IMG/VR virus record: IMGVR_UViG_3300031836_000002
Coordinates: 32,001 to 96,000 of that record
Direction: 5' to 3' (one strand)
Source of the DNA: a virus
Taxonomy: Duplodnaviria > Caudoviricetes
Length of the DNA: 64,000 nt
Shown here: positions 4,064 to 49,011 of the stretch, in pieces
Position numbering within the stretch: position 1 is the stretch's first letter
How the letters are laid out: every line of letters starts with the position of its first letter
Made by a program: the position numbers and the translations under genes
Notes under the pieces: generated by a model
The model's database searches: none
Seen by the model: only the letters and a program-made list of their open reading frames with translations
Told to the model about the DNA's origin: nothing

Positions 4064-4312
4064 TTAGCCCAGAGCCAGTTCGTCTTTTTCGAAGTCAGGG
4101 TCCGCGGCCAGAACGGCTGCACGAACTACTGTGCCGTGGTCTCGAACAATCTGCCACTGAGTGAAGGTGAGTCCTTCAGTTTCTGCAATGTCTTGGACTC
4201 CAGCATTGGTGGCTTCTGCTGTCAGCTCATCGAAGAGTCGATCTGCGGAGCCTCCATTGTGGAACAGGCGTGACATGTTTGTCATCTGCTGAGTTGTGTA
4301 TCGAATAGCCAT
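4064..4312 (-). CDS. hypothetical protein
   Basis: directly downstream of promoter module. Confidence 0.7.
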   Translation of the reverse strand: MAIRYTTQQMTNMSRLFHNGGSADRLFDELTAEATNAGVQDIAETEGLTFTQWQIVRDHGTVVRAAVLAADPDFEKDELALG

Positions 4313-4371
4313 GGTGTTCTCCTCTAGTTGACCTTACGGTTTGAGCGTAGCACAAGATTGCATACGCAATC
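4313..4371 (-). promoter_or_regulatory. repeated promoter-RBS module
   Basis: TTGCG-TA-TGCAA, TG-n-TACGCT, TAAGGTCAA, GAGGAG. Confidence 0.8.
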
Positions 4372-4642
4372 TATGCGGCTTGACGGCTCCGGACACAAGC
4401 ATTGTGGAGAAGGGCAGCTCGATGAATCTTCGCTTCCCGGAGTTGCTGTTCGAGCTTCGAGATCTGACGATCAGCCTCTGCAAGCGAGCGGCGTCGATGG
4501 TCTTCAGGGGTTGTGAGGGTTCTTCCAAGTTTCATGGGGTCTCCTAAATCTGGACCATATCGGGATGGTGCATCATGAAATGTTCGATCCGCTCGATGTG
4601 GTAGAAGCAGATCTCCACTAAATTCTTGAACCAGTTCTTCAT

Positions 4643-38350: not shown

Positions 38351-39075
38351 GGCTAGCCTTTCTTTGCTGCGTCGAGGTGCTTAGGACTTAGAGAGAACCC
38401 AACCTTGATGTCGTATGAGAGAAGCCCATAGGATGGGACCCCCGTGCTGACGATACCCACGCTGGTGTGGTTCGACAACTCGTTCAAAATCTTCTTTAGC
38501 TCACCCACGTTGGTGACGTACCCAAGGTTGCCACGATTTCGTCCTGCCACTACCTGCTCCTGCATGTAGCGAAGAGCTGTTGAGCCTTCGGCTGCCTTGG
38601 GCCTTTCGGTCTTGGCGTTCTCGGCTTTCTTGTGGATGTTGAATGCGGCCTTGGCACGCGCTCGACTGGGTGCGTGCTTTCCGTCGCTAATGACTCCGTT
38701 TTTACCACATGAGCACCTCCAAGAGACACTGCTGGGAAAGCTGGTGCCTGAGTAGTAGTGCTCTGTGTATGTAGCTGCGTGTGCTGCCATGGTGTCTCCC
38801 TAGTCTATGTTCTGGGCTGCGAGGTGGTAGGACTCTTCTTGTCCACTGGCCACGATCAGGTCAAAGCGGTGACCCTGCTGGATCCGATGCTCCACGCCTT
38901 CGAGAGCGCCAATCATGTCATGAGTGGCATTCCACGCATCTGCAATGACTCCGAACTCTGGTGACGTGTTGTCCATGTCGGTGAAGTTCTCCGCAAAGAA
39001 GACTTGAATAGCACGAGCTGCTGCGAGCTGTGCTTGTGCTGTGGCGATCTGTTCGTTCATCTGTTTCTTGTTCAT

Positions 39076-39136
39076 GGTGTCTCCTCTGGTTGACCTTACG
39101 TCTTGAGTCTACATCACGTGGACTGCATTTGCAATC
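39076..39136 (-). promoter_or_regulatory. repeated promoter-RBS module
   Basis: TTGCAA-17-TAGACT, TAAGGTCAA, GAGGAGACACC. Confidence 0.8.
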
Positions 39137-39146
39137 CACAGAAGGC

Positions 39147-39172
39147 AAAGAAAAACCCCTCTTTCGAGGGGC
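39147..39172 (-). terminator. intrinsic terminator
   Basis: CCCCTC-GAAA-GAGGGG followed by TTTTT. Confidence 0.85.
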
Positions 39173-39177
39173 TAGTC

Positions 39178-39534
39178 CTAGTTGTTGGCGTACAGGTAGC
39201 CGAACCGGCGTGTGCGGTAAGCATCAACGGCCTCAGCGAACCCTGCGGGATCCGAGATGTTGAACCGAACGGCCAAACCACTGGGGTGGGTTTTGCTCTT
39301 CTGGGGAGCCTTCCATGAGGCTGCCTTGACCAGATCACCCGTGGCACGGACTACGAAGGCGTGAACCGAGAAGGAGAACTCTGACTCGCCCTGTTCCATG
39401 ATCTTGTCGTAGACGTTTCCGGCCTGAACGATGAACTTGGGGGCCTTGATGTACTTCTCGTTGGCGTATCGAGCGTCATCGACTGACTGCAAGCTAGCGG
39501 CGAATCGAGCTGAAGCTTCTGTGGGGTTTGGCAT
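39178..39534 (-). CDS. conserved phage protein
   Basis: SVHAFV...GDL.KAASWKAP motif; own promoter and terminator. Confidence 0.7.
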   Translation of the reverse strand: MPNPTEASARFAASLQSVDDARYANEKYIKAPKFIVQAGNVYDKIMEQGESEFSFSVHAFVVRATGDLVKAASWKAPQKSKTHPSGLAVRFNISDPAGFAEAVDAYRTRRFGYLYANN

Positions 39535-39601
39535 GGTGTCTCCTCTGTGACTGGTTGACCTTACACTTTGAGTCTAGCAACTTTAGATTGCAATTGCAAC
39601 C
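39535..39601 (-). promoter_or_regulatory. repeated promoter-RBS module
   Basis: same core as 37551-37611. Confidence 0.85.
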
Positions 39602-40213
39602 TCTGAGCTACTAGCTTTCTCTGTTGTTGTGGAGGAATAGCTGGATCTCATCCGTGCCTGCCACATCGAAATCGTAGGGACCATCTGGGAGTTCCACAGT
39701 GTCCGGATACGTTTCTCGATCTGAGAATGTCACAAGGATCGACTCGCCCCCGTCTCCATGCCGGGGTAGGTACTTCCGCGTGGCTTCTATCTTGGGCTTC
39801 ATGGCTCTAACTGGTAGCTGCCCACCAGTTGGTCGAAGTCCCCGGCTCGCACGAGGATCAGGTCAGCGGTCTCCACGAGGGCCTTGACGTTAGCAATGGT
39901 GTACTCGAACCCGATGACACTGGACAAGGCAGAGCTACCGGGCTTGTAGCTCTCCATCAGCCTAAGGGTGATGGGCTTGGCGCGACTCTTGGGATTGTGC
40001 TTCACCTCCCACCAGCGGCTGTGTCCGGCTTTGGGGAGACTTTTCTTCAGCTGCTCACGCAGGTGGGAGGTGATCGGCTCTTTGGTGGTCATGATCTGTT
40101 GTACGCCTATCTCCGGGCGTAGAAAAGGGCTGGCCTTCCGAGAATACGGTTTGACCAGCCCAGCGACCCAAAGCGCCCCCACCGGGCCGCGTGGTCAGTC
40201 TATACGACTACTG

Positions 40214-40287
40214 TCCCTCAGGGTGGACTCGAACCACCGCGTCACCTTGTTATGAGCAAGGGGCCTTACCAGCTTGGCTACCGAGGG
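40214..40287 (-). tRNA. tRNA-Met or Ile2 (CAT)
   Basis: cloverleaf, CCTTG-CTCATAA-CAAGG, paired 1:72. Confidence 0.85.
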
Positions 40288-40407
40288 AAGTGAGGGAGGC
40301 TCGCACCCGTCGATGCGAGCGTCACCCTCGTGCTCGTTTCACTGCCTCGATGAGCTTCGAGTGAGGGACCTTCTCCCTCAGGCAGTCGTGCCCGCAATTC
40401 TTCTTTG

Positions 40408-40481
40408 TGGATCCACAGGGACTCGAACCCTGAACCATGTGCTTGCAAAGCACGCGCTCTACCAGTTGGAGCTATAGACCC
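40408..40481 (-). tRNA. tRNA-Ala(TGC)
   Basis: cloverleaf, loop TTTGCAA, G3:U70. Confidence 0.9.
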
Positions 40482-40492
40482 TCGATCATGCG

Positions 40493-40566
40493 TAGCCTCA
40501 ACAGGATTTGAACCTGTGACTTCCTCCTTATCAGGGAGACGCTCTACCAGACTGAGCTATGAAGCT
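40493..40566 (-). tRNA. tRNA-Ile(GAT)
   Basis: cloverleaf, loop CTGATAA. Confidence 0.9.
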
Positions 40567-40594
40567 TTGTCGCGGATCCGCCGCGCCGGTATTG

Positions 40595-40666
40595 TCCCCT
40601 CGACTGGATTCGAACCAGTGGCCAAGAGATTAGAAGGCTCCTGCTCTTCCTCTGAGCTACGAAGGG
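40595..40666 (-). tRNA. tRNA-Arg(TCT)
   Basis: cloverleaf, loop CTTCTAA. Confidence 0.85.
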
Positions 40667-40669
40667 AAG

Positions 40670-40743
40670 TGGAGACGGAACCCGGAATCTAACCGGGGTA
40701 AGAAGCTTTGCAGGCCCCTGCCTAGACTCTCGGCCATTCCGCC
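40670..40743 (-). tRNA. tRNA-Cys(GCA)
   Basis: loop CTGCAAA, U73, encoded CCA, T-loop TTAGATT. Confidence 0.85.
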
Positions 40744-40753
40744 AAATTCTTGT

Positions 40754-41047
40754 TTAGGTCTCATCCTCTGGACGTTCCTCGAATGTGATAGCCACATCCT
40801 TTCCCAGCATAGAGTCGAACCAAGCGGCTGCTTCAGGGTTCCCTACGGTGAGTTTGACCTCTCCCGATGGGGTGGCGGATGACCACGCCTCGTTCTGAGG
40901 CCCTTTAGCTCCTGATACAGGAGACATGACTACTTCGATGCGGGGGGCTGGATTCGCCCAACCACTAGCGTGAGCCTGAGAGACCGATGCAGCGAAACGC
41001 TTGACTTCACGGACGTAGAAACGGGCGGTGACTTTGGATATGGACAT
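40754..41047 (-). CDS. hypothetical protein within tRNA array
   Basis: GAGGAGG RBS before MSISK. Confidence 0.75.
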   Translation of the reverse strand: MSISKVTARFYVREVKRFAASVSQAHASGWANPAPRIEVVMSPVSGAKGPQNEAWSSATPSGEVKLTVGNPEAAAWFDSMLGKDVAITFEERPEDET

Positions 41048-41149
41048 AGTTGCCTCCTCGGCAATAGTTGAATTGAACTTGAGGAGGTCTGCGAACCAGA
41101 TTTGAGCCTGCGTCCGAACCTGTGCCCAGTGTAGCTCATTTCTTCTTTG

Positions 41150-41221
41150 TAGGCCTTGAGGATTCTGCCACCTCGACCCTCCGCTTAAAAGGCGGATGCT
41201 CTGCTTCTGAGCTAAAGGCCC
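41150..41221 (-). tRNA. tRNA-Lys(TTT), atypical T-loop
   Basis: TCCGC-CTTTTAA-GCGGA; T-loop GGCAGAA. Confidence 0.8.
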
Positions 41222-41226
41222 TAGCG

Positions 41227-41298
41227 CTCCGGGGGCTGGGGTCGAACCAACGCCACCTGATTCCAAAGATCAGCGTGCTGCCATTACACCACCCCGGA
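41227..41298 (-). tRNA. tRNA-Gln(TTG)
   Basis: CTGAT-CTTTGGA-ATCAG. Confidence 0.9.
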
Positions 41299-41372
41299 TT
41301 GAAGAGTCCACTACCTGTTAGGCCGGTCTTGGATAGGGCTAGCCAGCCGTGTGCGCTGCCCGTGGACTCTAG

Positions 41373-41443
41373 CTCCCCACCAAGGATTCGAACCTCGACA
41401 AACTGGCTCAGAACCAGTTGTGCTGCCGTTACACCAGCGGGGA
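41373..41443 (-). tRNA. tRNA-Gln(CTG)
   Basis: ACTGG-TTCTGAG-CCAGT. Confidence 0.9.
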
Positions 41444-41516
41444 ATATAGCAAGACGTGAGTATTAGTACCGACCGTCTTCGCAGGGATGATTGATGTTTG
41501 TCCCCACGTCTTACCG

Positions 41517-41588
41517 TGCCCTTCGAGGGATTCGAACCCCCAACATACGGTTCCGAAGACCGGCGCTCTTCCGTTGAGCTAGAAAGGC
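41517..41588 (-). tRNA. tRNA-Arg(TCG)
   Basis: loop CTTCGGA. Confidence 0.9.
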
Positions 41589-41642
41589 AGACCCGGCGCT
41601 GATCCAACAGCACTCCTGAATCGAACAGTCCGTTCCGGGGTT

Positions 41643-41705
41643 GTTAGCGCTCTGCCATTGAGCTACCGATCAAATCGGCTGGGACTCGAACCCAGATACT
41701 CTAAC
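41643..41705 (-). ncRNA. circularly permuted tRNA-like RNA (T arm, closed acceptor stem, D arm)
   Basis: GTTAG-AGTAT-CTGGG TTCGAGT CCCAG-CCGAT TTG ATCGG-TA-GCTC AATGGCA GAGC-G-CTAAC. Confidence 0.8.
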
Positions 41706-41707
41706 CG

Positions 41708-41779
41708 TGCCCTTCGAGGGATTCGAACCCCCGGCCCTCTCATCCGTAGTGAGATGCTCTTCCGCTGAGCTAGAAAGGC
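41708..41779 (-). tRNA. tRNA-Arg(ACG)
   Basis: TCTCA-CTACGGA-TGAGA. Confidence 0.9.
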
Positions 41780-41861
41780 ATGTGATGTGCCCGCCAATTA
41801 CCTCAGGCACATCGTCGTCAATTTTTCCTCCACTCCGAGTAAAATTGAAAAACCCTCGTCG

Positions 41862-41929
41862 TAACGTTGGCTGGATTCGAACCAGCGACCACCTCATGAG
41901 GAAGCTCTGCCTACCTGAGCTACAACGTC
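41862..41929 (-). ncRNA. tRNA-like RNA lacking an anticodon loop
   Basis: intact acceptor, D and T arms; anticodon arm reduced to CCTC-AT-GAGG. Confidence 0.75.
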
Positions 41930-42028
41930 TATCCCGTGGGGCAATTACTCCCACTCGTCCAGCTTCTGAAGCCTTTGGATCCCCACGTCATGGCCATGCC
42001 GCGGTTCCTCTCCAGCTCCGTCTACTCG

Positions 42029-42100
42029 CTCCCCATCTTGGATTCGAACCAAGGACCAATCGGTTAACAGCCGAACGCTCTGCCTCTGAGCTAACAGGGA
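42029..42100 (-). tRNA. tRNA-Asn(GTT)
   Basis: loop CTGTTAA. Confidence 0.9.
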
Positions 42101-42339
42101 TTACGTGAGATGGAAGCTGTCCTGCGTACTCAGGACCTTAGTGCTTCGTCGTTTCACCTATGGGGAGTACGACATTCCCCACCGGTAGGACACCCACTTG
42201 CCCTTTGTCTTCTCCAGAGCTTCGAGACACTGAAGAGGTGATCCGGAGATTTACGCACTCCGACAGTGACCTCATTACAGAGGATCGCGTGCCAGCTTTT
42301 CATTTTTGAAAGGTCTTGAGGCTGGATCCGTTGACCTTG

Positions 42340-42411
42340 TGCTTCTCAGAGGACTCGAACCTCTGACCGGTGCCGTGTAAAGACATTGCTCTGCCGCTGA
42401 GCTAGAGAAGC
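42340..42411 (-). tRNA. tRNA-Val(TAC)
   Basis: loop TTTACAC. Confidence 0.9.
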
Positions 42412-42412
42412 A

Positions 42413-43348
42413 TTAGGCAGGAGAGAGTTTCTCCGCCGCCGCACGGTACCGATCTAGAATGTCTGTCTTCTGGATGTGGTCCCGTTGCGGGTAGAACGTG
42501 TAATGACTGACCAGCGCGTTCCCGGCGATGGCAGTAGGCCGGTTCAGTCGCGTTGGCATCTCGATGGAGTGCCACGCCTCATCGTCAGTGTGTTCGATGT
42601 AGCCGGGAGGAGTGCAGTGGTTGTGATACTCCTCGGAGAGGCTGGCGAAACAGCTCACGCTAAACTGCTGCCCTAGTGGGAGCTGCACGTCGTGATAAAG
42701 AAACAGCTTGCTGACTGTTCCGGCTTCCACATGGTCTAGGAGAAGGTTGTGCATCTTTTCCGCGAATGGTCCGTCTGCCCAGCCAATTGGGTCCATGCAG
42801 TACGGCTGCACTTCTCCCCACTCGCGGGGCACACAACCTTGCATCTGGAGGTACCACGTGGATATAGCGTTGTTCCAGATGATGGGGAAGGTCACGAAGG
42901 CTGAGCTGGAGAGCTTCGACTTCACCAAAGTAGCAAGGGCGTCCTCGTGGATGTAAACGATGTCGTCATCAAATCGGACGTAAACCGTGTTCGGCTCCAC
43001 ACAGTTCTCGAAGAAAACTCTTGTGTTGTACTGCTTCTTGTGGTTGAGATTCCGGGTGGCTGGCGCGTACTTCTGTGTGATCCAGTCATGCTCAGCTGCC
43101 AGCTTGTCGGCGTAGGAGACATCCGAGACCTGATCCGGGTCGGTGTTCATCCAAAGCTGCCACTCATCCAAGACTCCTCTTTCGTGGTCCCTTTGGAGGT
43201 AAGAGAAAAGGATGGATGCAGTCGCCACCCTGCCGTATGGTGTGCAAGCAACTACCCGGCTTTCCAGAACTGTCATGGGACCAACAGTAGCAAACTCTGG
43301 AATCTCATACCCGTGGTTTTGGAGGCCCTTTGCGCTGTCGGAGGGCAA
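42413..43348 (-). CDS. putative GT-A glycosyltransferase-like protein (start uncertain, possibly 43276)
   Basis: TPYGR N-terminus and YVRFDDDIV DxD motif. Confidence 0.6.
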   Translation of the reverse strand: MPSDSAKGLQNHGYEIPEFATVGPMTVLESRVVACTPYGRVATASILFSYLQRDHERGVLDEWQLWMNTDPDQVSDVSYADKLAAEHDWITQKYAPATRNLNHKKQYNTRVFFENCVEPNTVYVRFDDDIVYIHEDALATLVKSKLSSSAFVTFPIIWNNAISTWYLQMQGCVPREWGEVQPYCMDPIGWADGPFAEKMHNLLLDHVEAGTVSKLFLYHDVQLPLGQQFSVSCFASLSEEYHNHCTPPGYIEHTDDEAWHSIEMPTRLNRPTAIAGNALVSHYTFYPQRDHIQKTDILDRYRAAAEKLSPA

Positions 43349-43406
43349 GTCCGTCTCATTCCTGAGAGATCTCTCTTTTCCTGTTGGACTGTTCGAGATA
43401 ACATCG

Positions 43407-43481
43407 GGCCTCTGGAGGGATTCGAACCCCCGACCGTCGCTTTACAAGAGCGTTGCTCTGGCCAAACTGAGCTACAAAGGC
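43407..43481 (-). tRNA. tRNA-Thr(TGT)
   Basis: loop CTTGTAA. Confidence 0.9.
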
Positions 43482-43753
43482 ATGTGCTGAGGAGATCGTG
43501 AGATATCGTGCGCTCAGCTCGCTCTGGCCTTTCGGTATCCAGACCCATGCCACAGCGGGCGAAGGAAAGTCCACCCCCTGCAACTCCGACAAGTTGTTCG
43601 GTCAGGGGGCTTCACATCTGCGCTGCCTACGAGAGGCTGCGAGAAAAAGTGCACCGGATGCCCTTGCAAAGGCGCTCCTTCCGAGGGAGCCAGACGGACT
43701 CAAGTTGTTCGTGATGTCTGAGCCGAACGCTGGTGACTAACTGCGTCCTTCCG

Positions 43754-43824
43754 AGGAGTACGCGGGGATCGAACCCGCGATGTCTGTTTGGAAGACAGAC
43801 GTGTTACCGCTACACCAGTACTCC
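43754..43824 (-). tRNA. tRNA-Gly(TCC)
   Basis: TCTGT-CTTCCAA-ACAGA, U73. Confidence 0.9.
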
Positions 43825-43910
43825 GTGAGCGCATTTAGCGGGTGCGCCTGACCATCCCGAAGAGAGGATACAGCCTCTCAATCCCAGCTCCCTGTATGAG
43901 GCTGGATCTG

Positions 43911-43982
43911 TGGGCCTGCGTGGAGTCGAACCACGTTCTCTTGATTAAGAGTCGAGAGCATCACCACTAATGCTTCAAGCCC
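43911..43982 (-). tRNA. tRNA-Lys(CTT)
   Basis: loop CTCTTAA. Confidence 0.85.
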
Positions 43983-44317
43983 CGATATTTTGCTATGTTC
44001 TCCGGTAACTGCATCCTCTCGAATGTTCTAATTCGATGACAGGTACCACAAACTACGTCACATTTTGCAATCTCAGCCATGATCCGGTTTATGGACTTAC
44101 CCATGAGAGCTGCCACTGTAGTAGCGGGATCGCTATCACGGTTCACCCTGTGGTCAAACTCTAATCCGGCGTGATGGGCTGAGTACCTGCAATCCGCACA
44201 CCCCTGAGACACCTTGTACTCCCGAACCACCATGACGTTCTTTTGATACCGGCCTCGCATGTACGCTGCCATGTAATCTCGGTACTCTTGGGAGCTTTTA
44301 TCTCTGGGTCTACTCAT
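43967..44317 (-). CDS. HNH endonuclease
   Basis: CADC..LEFDH..EIAKCDVVCGTCHRIRT. Confidence 0.85.
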   Translation of the reverse strand: MSRPRDKSSQEYRDYMAAYMRGRYQKNVMVVREYKVSQGCADCRYSAHHAGLEFDHRVNRDSDPATTVAALMGKSINRIMAEIAKCDVVCGTCHRIRTFERMQLPENIAKYRGLKH

Positions 44318-44341
44318 GCAGTAAGAATACCTTATCTAACT

Positions 44342-44429
44342 TGGCGGAGAACTGAGGGCATGATCCCCTCACCTTGCGGTGCCAACCGATTAGCAATCGG
44401 TGCCGGTGCGCCTGCCCGGTAAGCTCTCC
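44342..44429 (-). tRNA. tRNA-Ser(GCT)
   Basis: ACCGA-TTGCTAA-TCGGT, long variable arm, G73-CCA. Confidence 0.85.
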
Positions 44430-44430
44430 A

Positions 44431-44523
44431 TGGCGGATGAAGTAGGTCTCGAACCCACACGGGTATTACCCCCAACTGTTTTCAAGACAGCGCCCGATAG
44501 GCCGAAGCTCGGGTTATTCATCC
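44431..44523 (-). tRNA. tRNA-Ser(TGA)
   Basis: loop CTTGAAA, long variable arm, G73-CCA. Confidence 0.85.
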
Positions 44524-44547
44524 TTGTGTTTTTCTCTGTGGAATTAG

Positions 44548-44576
44548 AAAAGCCCCAGACTGTTAGGTCTAGGGCC
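44548..44576 (-). terminator. attenuator terminator of tRNA operon 2
   Basis: GCCCTAGAC-CTAACA-GTCTGGGGC-TTTT. Confidence 0.8.
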
Positions 44577-44605
44577 GCATTAGCGAGATTCGAAAATCTG
44601 CTGAG

Positions 44606-44680
44606 TTAGGACAGCCCTGAAGTACTGCGATTGGCCACAATGGCCGATCCCATTACTTGCTTGGACTGGTTTTTTCTCAT
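44606..44680 (-). CDS. leader peptide MRKNQSKQVMGSAIVANRSTSGLS
   Basis: ATG 6 nt after -10 (leaderless); codons match downstream tRNAs. Confidence 0.8.
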   Translation of the reverse strand: MRKNQSKQVMGSAIVANRSTSGLS

Positions 44681-44686
44681 GCGTTG

Positions 44687-44716
44687 ACCCTACTACTACT
44701 TTCAATCGAGACGCAA
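44687..44716 (-). promoter_or_regulatory. sigma70-type promoter of tRNA operon 2
   Basis: TTGCGT-18-TAGGGT. Confidence 0.7.
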
Positions 44717-44741
44717 GTGCATCCCGAAATTCTTCTTTGAT

Positions 44742-44877
44742 TGGACGATGCAGACGATTCGAACGCCACTTCCAACACTCTAGGCTGGCGAGCTGCCGCT
44801 GATGCTCTCCGGGATACGAACGCGCGCTCGACATCCTCCGGTGCTGTCTTTGGTCTACCTGATTACTCCATACATCG
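44742..44877 (-). ncRNA. tRNA-like RNA with large insertion in place of anticodon loop
   Basis: CGATGTA/TGCATCG acceptor, T-CCA end, GGCG-TTCGAAT-CGTC T arm. Confidence 0.65.
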
Positions 44878-44879
44878 AG

Positions 44880-44964
44880 TGCTCATCCCCGGACTTGAAC
44901 CGGGACGAGGGTTACCCCTCACAGCCACCTCAAGGCTGCGTGTCTGCCATTTCACCAGACGAGC
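44880..44964 (-). tRNA. tRNA-Leu(GAG)
   Basis: CAGCC-TTGAGGT-GGCTG, long variable arm. Confidence 0.9.
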
Positions 44965-45034
44965 TTATGCTGGGGTAGGTGGTCCATTCCTACCCCTGAG
45001 GTGGCATGCCCTTGGAGGAGCACTGCCACCTTTG

Positions 45035-45108
45035 TGTCTCTCCTCGGATTCGAACCGAGAACCTTTGGATCCTAAATCCAACGCCTCTACCAGTTGGGCT
45101 AGAAAGAC
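45035..45108 (-). tRNA. tRNA-Leu(TAG), short variable loop
   Basis: TTGGA-TTTAGGA-TCCAA. Confidence 0.85.
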
Positions 45109-45112
45109 ATGT

Positions 45113-45256
45113 GGATTGATCGAGCTTCAGAAGGCCGGGAGGATTCGAACCTACACACCAGCGCGTTTCCCCTCGGGCTACCAAGGGTACTAAACGCCGC
45201 CTCTGCCACTTCAGCTTTTTAATAGTGCGAACCAACCTACGTCCGCTCGATCAATC
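45113..45256 (-). ncRNA. tRNA-like structured RNA in a 13-bp closing stem
   Basis: GGATTGATCGAGC/GCTCGATCAATCC, AGG-TTCGAAT-CCT. Confidence 0.6.
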
Positions 45257-45280
45257 CCGATGAGTAGCTATCTCATCTTG

Positions 45281-45353
45281 TGCCCACCGAGAGGATCGAA
45301 CTCTCAGCCTTCCCGGCTTCAACGGGACGCTCTTCCACATGAGCTTGGAGGGC
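45281..45353 (-). tRNA. tRNA-Phe(GAA)
   Basis: TCCCG-TTGAAGC-CGGGA. Confidence 0.9.
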
Positions 45354-45428
45354 ATATAGCACACCGACATGGAACGCCTCCTCTGACTCAGCGTATATAC
45401 CGGTGTGCTAGAACGTCAAAGACGTTCG

Positions 45429-45511
45429 TGACAGGAGAGGGATTTGAACCCCCACAGTCGAAGACCACTGGGTTACAACCAGCTACCCTGCGCCAATAGG
45501 TGAGTCCTGCC
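45429..45511 (-). tRNA. tRNA-Tyr(GTA)
   Basis: loop TTGTAAC, variable arm. Confidence 0.85.
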
Positions 45512-45563
45512 TTGGTGCGGACACTTACGCGGCCCGCTTACGACCATATTTGGATGGCTTCCG

Positions 45564-45635
45564 TAGCGCGCACGGGATTCGAACCCGCACCGTAGAACCT
45601 GAAAAGCTCCAGAACTGCCGTTATTCTAACGCGCC
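45564..45635 (-). tRNA. tRNA-Glu(TTC)
   Basis: loop TTTTCAG. Confidence 0.85.
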
Positions 45636-45703
45636 ATAGGTAGAGACCGCCAATAACGCGGCTGGAAGGCCTGACACCCTTCTCACTCACCCTCTACCTG
45701 CCG

Positions 45704-45777
45704 TGACCTGCACGGGACTTGAACCCGTAACCTCCAGCTTGAGAAGCTGATGCAACTGCCAATTGTGCTAGCAGGCC
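45704..45777 (-). tRNA. tRNA-Glu(CTC)
   Basis: loop TTCTCAA. Confidence 0.9.
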
Positions 45778-45916
45778 ATATTGGAAGTTTCTGTGGTGCA
45801 TCCTCGATGGGACCCTTGTGGGGGCTACCCCCTTCGCTGGTTTAGCGGCCAGCTACTCGGCACGTCCACTCCCTCAACTATTTTCTCCCATGCACTGGGA
45901 CTGGATAGCTCCATAG

Positions 45917-45989
45917 CGGCCCTAGTCGGATTTGAACCGGCAACCTTCGCGCAGACAACGCACTGCTCTACCAATTGAGCTATAGGGTC
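45917..45989 (-). tRNA. tRNA-Asp(GTC)
   Basis: loop TTGTCTG, G73. Confidence 0.8.
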
Positions 45990-46066
45990 AAAGCCAGTTT
46001 CTTCTTGCCATGGAGTCTGGCATCCACGCCGTCCTTTTCTGATTGTGCCTCAGCGGTATCGGAAGT

Positions 46067-46143
46067 TGGGGTGAACAACGGGGATCGAACCCGCGACATC
46101 CGGCTCCACAAGCCAGCGCTCTGCCTACTGAGCTATGCCCACC
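46067..46143 (-). tRNA. tRNA-His(GTG)
   Basis: loop TTGTGGA, G-1:C73, CCA. Confidence 0.9.
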
Positions 46144-46192
46144 ATGTGACAGGACCACAAGGATCCTGTCTGTTCTCATTTCTGAAAACTTG

Positions 46193-46266
46193 TACGGATA
46201 GCAGGATTCGAACCTGCGATCTCTTGGTCCCAAACCAAGCGCCTTACCAAGCTGGGCTATACCCGT
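46193..46266 (-). tRNA. tRNA-Pro(TGG)
   Basis: CTTGG-TTTGGGA-CCAAG. Confidence 0.9.
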
Positions 46267-46305
46267 ATGTTGTTGCATTCACTGTGTAATTATCAAGGTG
46301 CAATG

Positions 46306-46336
46306 AAAAAACCTCCTTGCCCGGTGGCTAGGAGGT
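46306..46336 (-). terminator. attenuator terminator of tRNA operon 1
   Basis: ACCTCCT-A-GCC-ACCG-GGC-A-AGGAGGT-TTTTT. Confidence 0.85.
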
Positions 46337-46362
46337 CTGCTGCGTTTGAGCGCGTGCTACCT

Positions 46363-46407
46363 CTAGCCGAAGTAATCTTCCGGCAGGAGGTGTGAGAACG
46401 TGTTCAT
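46363..46407 (-). CDS. leader peptide MNTFSHLLPEDYFG
   Basis: ATG 7 nt after -10 (leaderless); stop inside antiterminator strand. Confidence 0.8.
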   Translation of the reverse strand: MNTFSHLLPEDYFG

Positions 46408-46414
46408 GTAACAG

Positions 46415-46444
46415 ACCTTAGTTGCGTGAGCTGACGGTTGTCAA
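46415..46444 (-). promoter_or_regulatory. sigma70-type promoter of tRNA operon 1
   Basis: TTGACA-18-TAAGGT. Confidence 0.8.
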
Positions 46445-46462
46445 CTCCATTTTCAGGTTTCG

Positions 46463-46536
46463 TTGCGGAGGTGGGATTTGAACCCACGACCTCTAGGATA
46501 TGAGCCTAGCGAGCTGCCTAACTGCTCTACTCCGCG
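46463..46536 (-). tRNA. tRNA-fMet(CAT)
   Basis: C1:A72 mismatch, CGCGGAG start, loop CTCATAT. Confidence 0.85.
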
Positions 46537-46564
46537 TCGTACTATAAGGATTGCATGTGCAATC
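46537..46564 (-). promoter_or_regulatory. promoter/operator for tRNA-fMet
   Basis: TTGCACATGCAA palindrome next to TATAGT. Confidence 0.6.
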
Positions 46565-46571
46565 TAATTTG

Positions 46572-47042
46572 TCAAGAGTTGATGAGTTCGAGGTAGTCGA
46601 ACTTGGTTCCTAGGCAATCGTGGATCGTGACACCTAGGCCCTGAAGCTCGACTACGTTTCCGTTGTAGACGAATGCGTATTCCGGGATGGCTCCGACACC
46701 AAGGACGAAGCGGTTTCCCTCCTCAGTGAGCTTCCAGAAGCCTGCACGGCCTCCGTCTGGTCTCACGCTGTAGTTCTCTTCTTCGATCAGTCCCCACCAG
46801 CTGGCTTGGGAGATCTCGTGAGTGTCTCCGGGAAGCGAGGGGGTGTGCTGATAGTCCTCAGACCCTCCTGCGTGATGCAGCTGGATCAAGGCCTTGGCAA
46901 TGGTGGCATGTAGCTTGCGCCGGTACACCTTGGCGTTCTGTCCACAGCAAGGGCACTTGGCTCCTTCTGACACGTTAGTGAGGAGCCACTCCTTCGCCAT
47001 CAAGAGGGTGGTATGTGCCCCCGTAACCATTCTTTTCAGCAT
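46572..47042 (-). CDS. hypothetical protein (CPCC motif)
   Basis: AAGGA RBS, full ORF. Confidence 0.7.
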   Translation of the reverse strand: MLKRMVTGAHTTLLMAKEWLLTNVSEGAKCPCCGQNAKVYRRKLHATIAKALIQLHHAGGSEDYQHTPSLPGDTHEISQASWWGLIEEENYSVRPDGGRAGFWKLTEEGNRFVLGVGAIPEYAFVYNGNVVELQGLGVTIHDCLGTKFDYLELINS

Positions 47043-47073
47043 GCTGTTCCTTTTCGTTGACCTAACAAAATCG

Positions 47074-47193
47074 TACTGAAGACGGGATTCGAACCCGCAT
47101 GCTACGTGTCGCGTTCACGTGCTTGCCTCTACACCTTGACCTCCGCCTCTAAAAGGCGTAGCCACACACTGCCAGCTTTTAAGTCACTCCAGT
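47074..47193 (-). ncRNA. tRNA-like RNA with expanded D region
   Basis: ACTGGAG/CTTCAGT acceptor, ACGTG-7nt-CACGT arm, GCGGG-TTCGAAT-CCCGT. Confidence 0.6.
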
Positions 47194-47282
47194 GGGGTGT
47201 TCTTCAGTTCCGGCCCATGTTTCAGCTTGCGCCCTTCCAGATCAACGGGGGACAGCTTCGGCAATGAGCTAATGCCTATGCG

Positions 47283-47356
47283 CGGGATGTGGTGGATTCG
47301 AACCACCGGCTTCGGTTTTGGAGACCAACGTGTTAGGCCACTAACACTAACTTCCC
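47283..47356 (-). tRNA. tRNA-Trp(CCA)
   Basis: loop CTCCAAA. Confidence 0.9.
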
Positions 47357-47535
47357 TTGGCGGCAGGACTCTCATTGAAGAGCTTCTCCTCTAGACTTCT
47401 TGCTCCATTTCCTAGGTTGGGAGCTGCCCATTTTCGAGGTTGGGGCTTCCGGGTGGATCCACATCTGGTCTAAGTTCTCGGTTCCGCGGAGGTCCGAAAT
47501 TCTTCTACTGATCGTGGCCCGGTCAACACCTGCCG

Positions 47536-47610
47536 TAGCCCTCCTCGGATTCGAACCGAGACGTTACTGGTTTTTGAGACCAGCTCCTCTACCGATTGGG
47601 ATAGAGAGCC
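47536..47610 (-). tRNA. tRNA-Leu(CAA), short variable loop
   Basis: CTGGT-CTCAAAA-ACCAG. Confidence 0.85.
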
Positions 47611-48266
47611 AAGCGGAACCTGCCACTTCTGGGGGGAGAGCTTTAGGTTCCTAGCTGCTTCTCCGAGACTGAGGAGACTGTACGAGAAGCAGTTATCTAT
47701 ATTACGATGATGAACCATCGTTTGAAAAGGGTGTGGCAGAAACTTCTTCAAGTCCCGCCTCTTTGATGAACAGATCCAAAGTGCCCATGACTCCAGAGGT
47801 GGCCTGAGCATCCTTACCTGCCTGCCTTAGGCGCTTCGCAATGATGGGTAGGGCAAACGTCACGGCCTCTTCAGCCTGAGCTGCCCACACCTCCCTGAGG
47901 AGTTCAAGGTCGATATGAAATTCTATCTTTGAGGCATTATCCTCTGAGAACCTCACAGCAATTTCTTGCGCTAATGTCATTGGTTCCTTCTCTCGATCAC
48001 GGCAGACCAGATCCAGAAACCAGAACCAGCTGCCATGAGGATAAACACGATGGGATACGCTGCGGACTCGATGAAGCAGGAAGCTAGCAAGTACAGAGCG
48101 CCTGCCCAAATCAGCAACCGGTGCTCCCGCCTCACTGTACTTCCTCCACATCCGCGAACAACGAGTGGACCTGAACAGTCAGTGCGGTTCCGTTTGCCGT
48201 GTGTCCTACTACTCGGGTTACGGTAGGCAAGCTGTTTACAAACCGATTGAAATCTCTGTTGTCCAT

Positions 48267-48322
48267 GGGGACCTCCTCTGTTGACCTATCTTCAGTCTAA
48301 GGCATGTGGATTGCAATTGCAA
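48267..48322 (-). promoter_or_regulatory. repeated promoter-RBS module
   Basis: TTGCAATTGCAA, TAGACT, TAGGTCAA, GAGGAGGT. Confidence 0.75.
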
Positions 48323-49011
48323 GCTTATGGTGACGAAGGTAAGACATACGCAATCCGCGCCCAACCATCCAGCGCGCTCTCCTTCGTTCTTACGTCGATG
48401 TCCACACCACAGGCTCAAGATTCGAGGCACATCTTCAGGATCTGCTCGTTCTCCTCGTGATTGTGGTCACAGGAGTTGTGGTGGAAGACCTTGCCGCAGA
48501 CGAAACACTTGCCGTCTGGATCCCACTTTCCTCCGGCCTTTCGGACTCGGCTGACGATCTGGTCCATGTGGGAGCGTGAAATCTTCTTTCGCATAGCCTC
48601 TACCATCGACTCAAGCCTCCAGCTCGTCAGTTCCGACCGTCTCCGATTCCACTGCATCGAAGGTTTCTACTTCCGTCTCGGTCTCGTAGATGGGGACCAT
48701 GTTATCCTCGGCCAGCTTGATGTTGGCTTCGATGATGGCCTGATTGAAGATGTCTGGGTCGATGGTGATTCCCACCTTGACCATCACTCGGCCTGTCTTG
48801 CCTACCGCTGAGGTGGGTCCACTCTTGGTCATCTTTTCAATGCTGAAGTCGTGCGCCTTCTTGGTATCGCTGCCCCGTGGCTTGCGGATGTCGGTGGGCA
48901 GTAAGTGCAACCACACGTGGTGTGTCTTGGGCGTTTGTGCCATGAAATTCCTTTCCACTGTGTTGTACGCCCCCAGTGGCCAAAGAACAACTCGCTGGGG
49001 GCGTACATCTT

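Follow-up and report, generated by a model that had tools for sequence, protein, structure and literature searches.

Candidate leader-peptide attenuators with codons matched to the tRNA blocks that follow them in actinophage genomes

We analysed a 64,000-nucleotide (nt) stretch of DNA, hereafter the window, from IMG/VR record IMGVR_UViG_3300031836_000002, a 124-kb uncultured virus with terminal repeats whose source was brine metagenomes. All genes of the window lie on its minus strand, and among them are two blocks of transfer RNA (tRNA) genes, each standing behind a promoter-like site, a short open reading frame (ORF) and RNA segments that can pair either as an antiterminator or as a terminator (Table 1). 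The codons of the two short ORFs, here called leader 1 and leader 2, match the tRNAs of the block that follows. Judging from the sequence, we consider it likely that each tRNA block is a unit under ribosome-mediated attenuation of the trp/his type, in which many sensor codons would provide feedback on the phage's tRNA supply. A preliminary description of this DNA had already read the leaders as codon-matched attenuators, and conservation, competing folds, composition and covariation support that reading, in which leader translation and ribosome stalling are the inferred steps. The order it had reported, of promoter, leaderless ORF, antiterminator and terminator and then tRNAs, is indeed present twice, with the leaderless start as a prediction. 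The layout and its conservation, the alternative pairings, the match between leaders and tRNAs and the covariation of the two are carried by the sequence itself.

Leader composition and its conservation

Transcripts of both leaders are predicted to begin at the ATG, and the -10 elements are AGG-rich and could double as ribosome-binding sites on read-through transcripts. ARAGORN identified 28 tRNAs on the minus strand between 40213 and 47610, to which Rfam and a relaxed ARAGORN run added two that the default run had missed, tRNA-Ser(tga) at 44431-44523 (-) and tRNA-Lys(ttt) at 41149-41222 (-). Their recovery matters because the leader 2 codons TCA/TCG and AAA match them. A recount bore out the composition that had been claimed for both leaders. 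Every one of the seven block-1 amino acids occurs in leader 1, which includes the run HLLPEDYF, while leader 2 draws 22 of its 23 post-start residues from the block-2 set, covers 11 of the 12 amino acids of that set (Cys is absent) and contains no Pro, His, Asp, Glu, Tyr, Phe or Trp. The single out-of-set residue of the window's leader 2, a Leu, is accounted for by RNA pairing: it lies in the motif GGGCUGUC, and this motif is segment 2, which forms the antiterminator's upstream arm.

Such matches are rare among the short ORFs of the window. Of the 669 ORFs that start with ATG and have 10-30 codons, leader 1 alone fits the seven amino acids of set 1 into at most 17 residues, and only 2 of 331 ORFs, one of them leader 2, combine at least 90% set-2 residues with a coverage of at least 10. 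When random peptides of the same length were drawn with the phage's own amino-acid usage, the P values of the match were ~0.001 (leader 1) and 5e-5 (leader 2). An Rfam cmscan of window positions 39000-49000 (E up to 1) gave tRNA-type and weak chance matches only, with no T-box or other cis-regulatory family on the leaders.

Both leaders are present in nine genomes: the window, three uncultured genomes (G002, G003 and G004) and the cultured Microbacterium phages Magritte, Pumpernickel, A3Wally, Cece and Zooman. These genomes form two divergent clades, one comprising the window, Magritte and G002-G004 and the other the ~190-kb phages Pumpernickel, A3Wally, Cece and Zooman, and their leader DNA is only ~70-80% identical. 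Magritte is the closest named phage, with a DNA polymerase that is 46.5% identical and a syntenic tRNA array. G002, G003 and G004 are the three with the same array order among eight viral contigs that were retrieved with a neighbouring RecA-like sequence as the query. A strict scan of the arrays (TTGNNN, 16-19 nt, TANNNT, 5-8 nt, a start codon and a short ORF) returned exactly these two leaders in the window, Magritte, G002, G003 and G004. In the large clade, alongside a few other matches, it returned both leaders for three phages (Pumpernickel, A3Wally and Cece) and leader 1 for Zooman; leader 2 of Zooman has a variant -35 element and was spotted by eye. The promoter geometry is common to 18 of 18 leaders, with a 17-18-nt spacer and 6-7 nt from the -10 element to the ATG, and the start, frame and length of the ORF are kept in all 18, as is the position of the stop codon relative to segment 2. 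The preliminary description had named unconserved ORFs as an outcome that would speak against it, and what we found is the opposite. Blast matches suggest Big4 and one further record as additional carriers.

As a negative control, the promoter-plus-start pattern of leader 1 was matched against 2.9 million viral contigs. It occurred at 10 other sites, none of them before a tRNA, and these sites consisted of nine ORFs of at least 47 codons and one ORF of 5 codons. Searching viral contigs with the leader DNA patterns gave no leader-bearing genome beyond those already found. A second scan of viral contigs for the RecA-like protein gave three closer relatives, all of them devoid of tRNAs, and the corresponding scan of metagenome contigs gave distant matches only (at most 37% identity).

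Leader 1 contains 7 of 7 block-1 amino acids in 9 of 9 copies, although each copy has a length of only 12-16 residues (P ~0.001-0.005 each). The pooled leader-by-set table, [[86,38],[16,179]], yields a Fisher p of 4e-31, a value that overstates independence since the leaders are homologous. In pairwise comparisons of leader 1 across the nine genomes, the mean aligned identity was 0.47 and the mean multiset overlap 0.71, and the identity dropped to 0.31-0.38 in several pairs within the window's clade. Leader 1 conserves its composition, the residue order being shuffled among phages. This pattern bears on the idea that the ORFs encode functional micropeptides, for example anti-defence or regulatory ones, whose location before tRNAs is incidental. 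Conservation of the ORFs in nine genomes would agree with such a role, but selection on a peptide does not sit well with a leader that keeps its composition and not its residue order, the peptides have 12-23 residues and no conserved motif, and their stop codons are tied to the RNA switch. We regard micropeptides as an extremely improbable explanation.

The in-set residues are distributed unevenly along the leaders, and this distribution says more than the pooled table. Across the copies of leader 1, codons 2-3 contribute none (0/18), the middle codons 74/79 and the final three 12/27, and the corresponding values for leader 2 are 12/18, 147/150 and 20/27. An attenuator predicts this zone pattern exactly, for in it the middle codons alone could signal: a ribosome stalled at the start would not free segment 2 from segment 1, and one stalled at the end would cover segment 2.

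If the leaders are matched to their tRNA blocks, then in related phages leader composition should co-vary with tRNA content, a comparison that the preliminary description had proposed and that proved positive for Trp and Ala. In the four ~190-kb phages tRNA-Trp is a member of block 2, and one TGG codon is present in every copy of their leader 2. In the other five genomes tRNA-Trp lies upstream of leader 1, and Trp occurs in none of their leader 2 copies. For Ala, the tRNA belongs to block 2 in the five genomes of the window's clade, each of which has two Ala codons in leader 2, and it forms its own promoter unit in the four large phages, where the Ala counts in leader 2 are 0, 0, 0 and 1. By reading of the peptides, as opposed to a residue-by-residue tally, Trp and Ala are the sole systematic differences between the clades in leader 2. 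The match extends to isoacceptors. The two Leu codons of leader 1 sample both Leu isoacceptors in 4 of the 5 genomes of the window's clade, and among these five G002 is the only one with Leu(caa) in block 1 and the only one to use TTG. Serine tRNAs with anticodons cga, gga and gct in G003 face the codons TCG, TCC and AGC, one each, and in the window the leader 2 codons CAA/CAG, AAA/AAG and AGA/CGC match Gln ttg/ctg, Lys ttt/ctt and Arg tct/acg.

These observations also allow us to weigh the possibility that the leaders act as a general translation gauge, which would report only the availability of ribosomes and their coupling to RNA polymerase, and that the leader codons stem from RNA-structure constraints and shared ancestry. 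It is true that pairing fixes parts of leader 2 (segment 1, an internal hairpin and segment 2), that several leaders fold 1:2 and terminate without a ribosome, and that the shared composition of homologous leaders is dependent evidence. In leader 1, however, both the residue order and the RNA arms change while all seven block-1 amino acids are always kept. The in-set residues, moreover, reach 94-98% precisely in the middle codons and are lower at both ends, and the Trp and Ala content tracks the tRNA block, with a codon choice that fits at the isoacceptor level too. We judge a general gauge unlikely.

Four of the records have feature tables that were examined at both leader positions (Magritte, Pumpernickel, A3Wally and Zooman), and the leaders are unannotated in all four. 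Over leader 2 of Magritte lies gene 99 (L002 13092-13190), a 32-codon ORF annotated on the opposite strand, which is probably spurious. Most tRNA names deposited for A3Wally (L192, MZ150783.1) are wrong, the anticodon having been read as a codon; the first tRNA, Pro(tgg), is named Trp(tgg).

The strict scan detected no leaders in G001, G006, G007 and G008, which are more distant and have other array orders. A looser scan of these relatives gave one candidate, in G007, an 11-codon ORF with a Shine-Dalgarno sequence that starts at L017:16604 (reverse strand), 60 nt before a tRNA block consisting of Leu x3, Glu x2, Phe, Thr, Pro x2, Gln x2 and His. The ORF covers 7 of the 7 amino acids, and its codons CTT and TTA match Leu(aag) and Leu(taa). 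Its P of 1.9e-4 is that of a single test where many ORFs were screened, and it is followed by no clear terminator, so that we treat it as a lead only. The ~190-kb phages carry a third conserved leaderless short ORF (L191:16298, L192:15818, L193:17549 and L194:14814), which has 21-23 codons and ends in Arg-Cys or Arg-Met. It precedes a coding sequence of ~700 nt, which is followed by Met/Ile(tat) and Cys tRNAs, and its composition has no clear match. This ORF may be a third attenuator.

Alternative RNA pairings and a proposed model of attenuation

In leader 1 of the window, the duplex between segments 2 and 3 has a free energy (dG) of -20.1 as against -17.5 for the terminator (z -3.1 against shuffles), and a ribosome positioned on the stop codon would hide segment 2. 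A terminator hairpin is present in 18 of 18 leaders, at -15 to -44 kcal/mol and with a U-rich tail in most. The 2:3 antiterminator duplex is likewise present in all 18, at -14 to -25 kcal/mol as compared with -15 to -29 for the terminators when leader 1 of G004 is excepted, and 9-23 nt of the terminator arm take part in it. In 15 of the leaders segment 2 extends across the stop codon, and in the other three it lies just inside the end of the ORF. In every leader the 2:3 pairing is better than in shuffled sequences (mean z -2.3 and -2.7), and the paired arms of leader 1 vary in sequence among genomes while the pairing itself is retained. RNAalifold, applied to the antiterminator of leader 2, gave conserved pairing in 4 of 5 sequences and no double compensatory change, the fifth sequence being misaligned. 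The minimum-energy folds of most naked leaders contain a 1:2 hairpin of varying strength, and together with the other pairings this hairpin would give most leaders the classical four-segment plan. In a codon-by-codon simulation of ribosome stalling, the antiterminator formed at upstream stalls and was lost once the ribosome stood at the last codons.

The distance between the leader-2 terminator and the first tRNA is only ~30 nt. There is no room in this gap for a usual promoter of the sigma-70 type, and the block-2 tRNAs must therefore arise by read-through. Behind each attenuator, and in all relatives too, a motif with the core ACAG[AT]G preceded by AAYTCMAC lies 10-15 nt before the first tRNA (in the window at about 44530-44545 and 46280-46295, minus strand). 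It also occurs just past the leader-less promoter of the Ile-Ala unit of the large phages (L191 about 19035, L193 about 21775), and overall the window shows no enrichment of the motif TYMACAGWG. A possible role for the conserved motif is that of a processing or pause site.

An alternative that dispenses with sensing is that the hairpins are constitutive terminators or insulators, or elements for the processing or stability of pre-tRNAs, that the ORFs are silent, and that leaky read-through or unseen promoters supply the tRNAs. The dominance of the terminator at equilibrium would be consistent with this, as would a conserved motif that lies between terminator and first tRNA and that recurs after a leader-less promoter. 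Silent ORFs, on the other hand, would have no reason to conserve their start, their frame and their length, or the place of the stop codon with respect to segment 2, in 18 leaders of two clades, and both the composition match and the zone pattern would be pointless for them. Nor does the space behind the leader-2 terminator admit the unseen promoter, if it were of the sigma-70 type. We consider constitutive hairpins very unlikely.

Under the attenuation model that we favour, host RNA polymerase would begin the transcript with the A of the leader's start codon, ATG, and the 5' end would then be loaded with a ribosome. If all sensor codons were read fast, the ribosome would reach the last codons or the stop codon and cover segment 2, segments 3 and 4 would pair, and transcription would terminate before the first tRNA. 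If any of the listed charged tRNAs were scarce, the ribosome would wait in the middle of the leader, segment 2 would be free to pair with segment 3, no terminator would form, and the whole block would be transcribed. Since the tRNAs of the block read the sensor codons, the loop would be closed, and the block would be switched off again when decoding was restored. The cause of the shortage would be immaterial: a mismatch in codon usage, loss of host tRNAs in infection, cleavage by host tRNA nucleases, or starvation. The preliminary description had proposed a multiplexed sensor of tRNA loss; we take slow decoding from any cause as the signal, and host anticodon nucleases become only one possible trigger among others. 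On balance we lean towards viewing the system as a closed-loop controller of decoding capacity that would act at the isoacceptor level and block by block, that would ride out depletion or cleavage of host tRNAs, and whose design would be old and widespread, occurring as it does in two actinophage clades.

A related proposal is that the leaders are classical sensors of amino-acid starvation, which would time tRNA expression to the physiology of the host and would not respond to tRNA levels. The architecture equals that of amino-acid attenuators, and a stalled ribosome is blind to whether a tRNA is missing or uncharged. Extra tRNA, however, gives no relief of amino-acid starvation, so that the output would not match the signal, and the codons sample individual downstream isoacceptors, which is relevant to the supply of tRNAs and not to that of amino acids. 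This proposal is a variant of the attenuator described above and does not exclude it; as an explanation on its own we find it highly improbable.

Several points weigh against codon-specific attenuation. Transcription start, leader translation, termination and the relief of termination by stalling are all inferred from sequence, and we count this on the negative side. The evidence from Trp and from Ala amounts in each case to one contrast, that between the two clades. Magritte and G004 retain the His codon in leader 1 though no canonical tRNA-His was detected in them, and some tRNA units have no leader at all, namely Leu(caa)-Trp in the clade of the window and Ile-Ala in the large clade. Several copies of leader 2 begin with Phe or Leu codons, and in A3Wally and Zooman the tail of leader 1 includes a Trp codon. 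The composition of leader 2 is partly fixed by RNA pairing, in segments 1 and 2 and in the internal hairpin, and some of its codons are therefore not chosen for sensing. As regards folding, leader 1 of G004 has a duplex of -23 against a terminator of -44, which lacks a U run, and the antiterminator by the stop codon of G003 leader 1 is only weak. Finally, in equilibrium folding the terminator remained dominant at almost every simulated stall.

We rejected a switch at equilibrium, as a stalled ribosome failed to displace the terminator in these calculations. Because the terminator wins at equilibrium, the switch must be kinetic, by co-transcriptional trapping as in trp.

Other features of the tRNA arrays

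The coordinates of the two leader-block units are collected in Table 1. Block 2 of the window is interrupted by three ORFs (43967-44317, 42413-43348 and 40754-41050), and a Pfam search of six neighbouring ORFs, these three included, gave no match. No RNA run was listed as containing this sequence. Four DNA contig runs compared over 44300-46700 represent practically one strain, the sole differences being single-base homopolymer gaps in one run, which are probably assembly or read errors.

Table 1. Positions of the two candidate attenuators and their tRNA blocks in the window.
Feature	Position	Strand	Basis	Details
Leader-1 promoter-like site	46405..46444	-	sequence	-35 TTGACA 46444-46439; 18-nt spacer; -10 TAAGGT 46420-46415; 7 nt; ATG 46407-46405
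Leader ORF 1	46363..46407	-	sequence	14 codons + TAG (46365-46363); middle codons Phe, His, Leu (two codons), Pro, Glu, Asp, Tyr
Leader 1 segment 2	46351..46369	-	pairing, stall simulation	upstream arm of antiterminator; spans stop codon
Leader 1 segment 3 and terminator	46304..46345	-	folding	segment 3 46345-46326, overlapping terminator hairpin 46337-46310; then U run
tRNA block 1	44879..46266	-	ARAGORN, Rfam	Pro(tgg), His(gtg), Asp(gtc), Glu(ctc), Glu(ttc), Tyr(gta), Phe(gaa), Leu(tag), Leu(gag)
Leader-2 promoter-like site	44678..44716	-	sequence	-35 TTGCGT 44716-44711; 18-nt spacer; -10 TAGGGT 44692-44687; 6 nt; ATG 44680
Leader ORF 2	44606..44680	-	sequence	24 codons + TAA; samples Arg, Lys, Asn, Gln, Ser, Val, Met, Gly, Ala, Ile, Thr, often one codon per isoacceptor
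Leader 2 segment 2	44610..44621	-	pairing	motif GGGCUGUC, the Gly-Leu-Ser codons right before the stop; upstream arm of antiterminator
Leader 2 segment 3 and terminator	44545..44579	-	folding	segment 3 44579-44567, overlapping terminator hairpin 44576-44551; then U run
tRNA block 2 (position of whole block), first tRNAs	40213..44523	-	ARAGORN, Rfam	Ser(tga), Ser(gct), Lys(ctt), Gly, Thr, Val, Asn, anticodon-tca tRNA, Arg(acg), Arg(tcg)
tRNA block 2 (position of whole block), further tRNAs	40213..44523	-	ARAGORN, Rfam	Gln(ctg), Gln(ttg), Lys(ttt), Cys, Arg(tct), Ile, Ala, Met (last, at 40213)
Likely end of operon 2	40120..40161	-	sequence	terminator-like hairpin (40127-40161) + U run past last tRNA

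The arrays contain a number of unusual tRNA-like and other RNA elements. In Magritte and G004, the syntenic gap between Pro and Asp holds a conserved but divergent tRNA-His-like sequence (L002 11591-11691; L014) with a GTG anticodon loop and an aberrant T arm, missed by ARAGORN and Rfam, which may be a non-canonical tRNA-His. At 41861-41929 (-) the window has a 69-nt tRNA with the anticodon TCA, labelled SeC by ARAGORN and scoring 44 bits as an Rfam tRNA, which could read UGA, and the relatives G001 and G007 have tRNAs whose anticodon, CTA, would pair with UAG; all of these may be suppressors. Inside the array of G002, between tRNA-Asp and tRNA-Glu, lies a GOLLD RNA (RF02032, 229.7 bits) at 4125-4557 (-) of contig L015, and the ARAGORN call "SeC(tca)" in this array falls inside it. 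Matches to YrlA, a Y RNA-like family, that are under the gathering score adjoin the array of the window (41649-41696, minus strand) and overlap the annotated tRNA-Arg(tct) of Magritte (L002 18037-18163). A Ro-like RNA-binding protein is encoded immediately after the tRNA array in Magritte and Zooman; L194 21165-22501 belongs to this group of features too.

Genes for HNH and endonuclease VII proteins are dispersed in the arrays of all these phages, and in G003 (L013, 3226-3785 of the reversed locus) an ORF resembling LAGLIDADG-type homing endonucleases adjoins a degenerate tRNA-Tyr. In the large clade, a peptidyl-tRNA hydrolase gene lies ~50 nt after the last block-1 tRNA (L191 3051-3521, L193 3588-4025, L194 3714-4124) and may be co-transcribed under leader 1. 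RNA ligases of the RtcB type and other RNA ligases are encoded within the same arrays, and these genes, together with the hydrolase, fit the context of a phage under pressure on its tRNA supply.

Relation to known systems

Large phage tRNA sets have been discussed as counter-defence or as codon compensation, that is, as answers to why phages carry tRNAs at all (eLife 2023, PMC10264068; Nat Commun 2024, PMC11555353). The arrays considered there are the same class of cargo as the blocks described here, and host tRNA-cleaving nucleases are a plausible selective pressure; attenuators, leaders, promoters and terminators go unmentioned in PMC10264068. A full-text literature search gave no account of attenuators on tRNA genes. 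If our reading is true, these would, as far as that search showed, be the first tRNA genes under leader-peptide attenuation, and with 7 and ~11 amino acids sensed by single leaders they would be the most multiplexed attenuators known. They would show how large phage tRNA sets are regulated and link these sets to decoding stress, and so bear on the choice between codon compensation and counter-defence against tRNA-cleaving host systems. The leaders occur in cultured, easily handled phages of Microbacterium foliorum and its relatives, so that the proposal is directly testable, and the compact leader part could work as a natural sensor of many charged tRNAs simultaneously.

T-box riboswitches of Gram-positive translation-related genes bind uncharged tRNA directly and need neither a ribosome nor an ORF. 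They resemble the phage leaders in sensing tRNA status through a switch between terminator and antiterminator. Unlike them, the phage leaders would read the tRNA pool through an ORF, and they match no T-box model. In mycobacteria, leaderless short ORFs with polycysteine tracts act as ribosome-pausing sensors that control downstream operon genes (10.1101/834739). According to that report, these are actinobacterial short ORFs with a 5'-AUG, as the phage leaders are predicted to be, and provide a precedent for the translation of such ORFs and for their use in attenuation; they differ in that they sense one amino acid and expose a sequestered ribosome-binding site, and thus act on translation (10.1101/834739). 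The phage target is an untranslated tRNA, and control must therefore act on transcription, via the terminator.

In Escherichia coli, the pheST operon for phenylalanyl-tRNA synthetase is under leader-peptide control. As proposed for the phage, the regulated gene belongs to the translation apparatus, and the leader senses a charged tRNA that the product helps to make; in contrast to the phage leaders, pheST involves one amino acid, a protein-coding operon and a cellular genome. The same logic is seen in the leader-peptide attenuators of amino-acid operons, such as the multivalent ones of ilvGMEDA, whose leader has Leu, Val and Ile codons, and thr, whose leader has Thr and Ile codons, besides trp, his, leu and pheA. 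These enterobacterial attenuators share with the phage leaders a short ORF with cognate codons and, if the predicted folds and the proposed stalling hold for the phage, four segments whose antiterminator and terminator folds exclude each other, a segment 2 that is masked at the stop, and the sensing of more than one amino acid. The phage leaders are distinguished by a predicted leaderless start, by being phage-encoded and by the tRNA genes that they would regulate. Whereas enterobacterial leaders have runs of one to three amino acids, the phage leaders cover 7 and ~11 amino acids, mostly with one or two codons each. Finally, and again unlike the enterobacterial amino-acid operons, the output of the phage units would directly relieve the stall, so that the loop would close on decoding itself.

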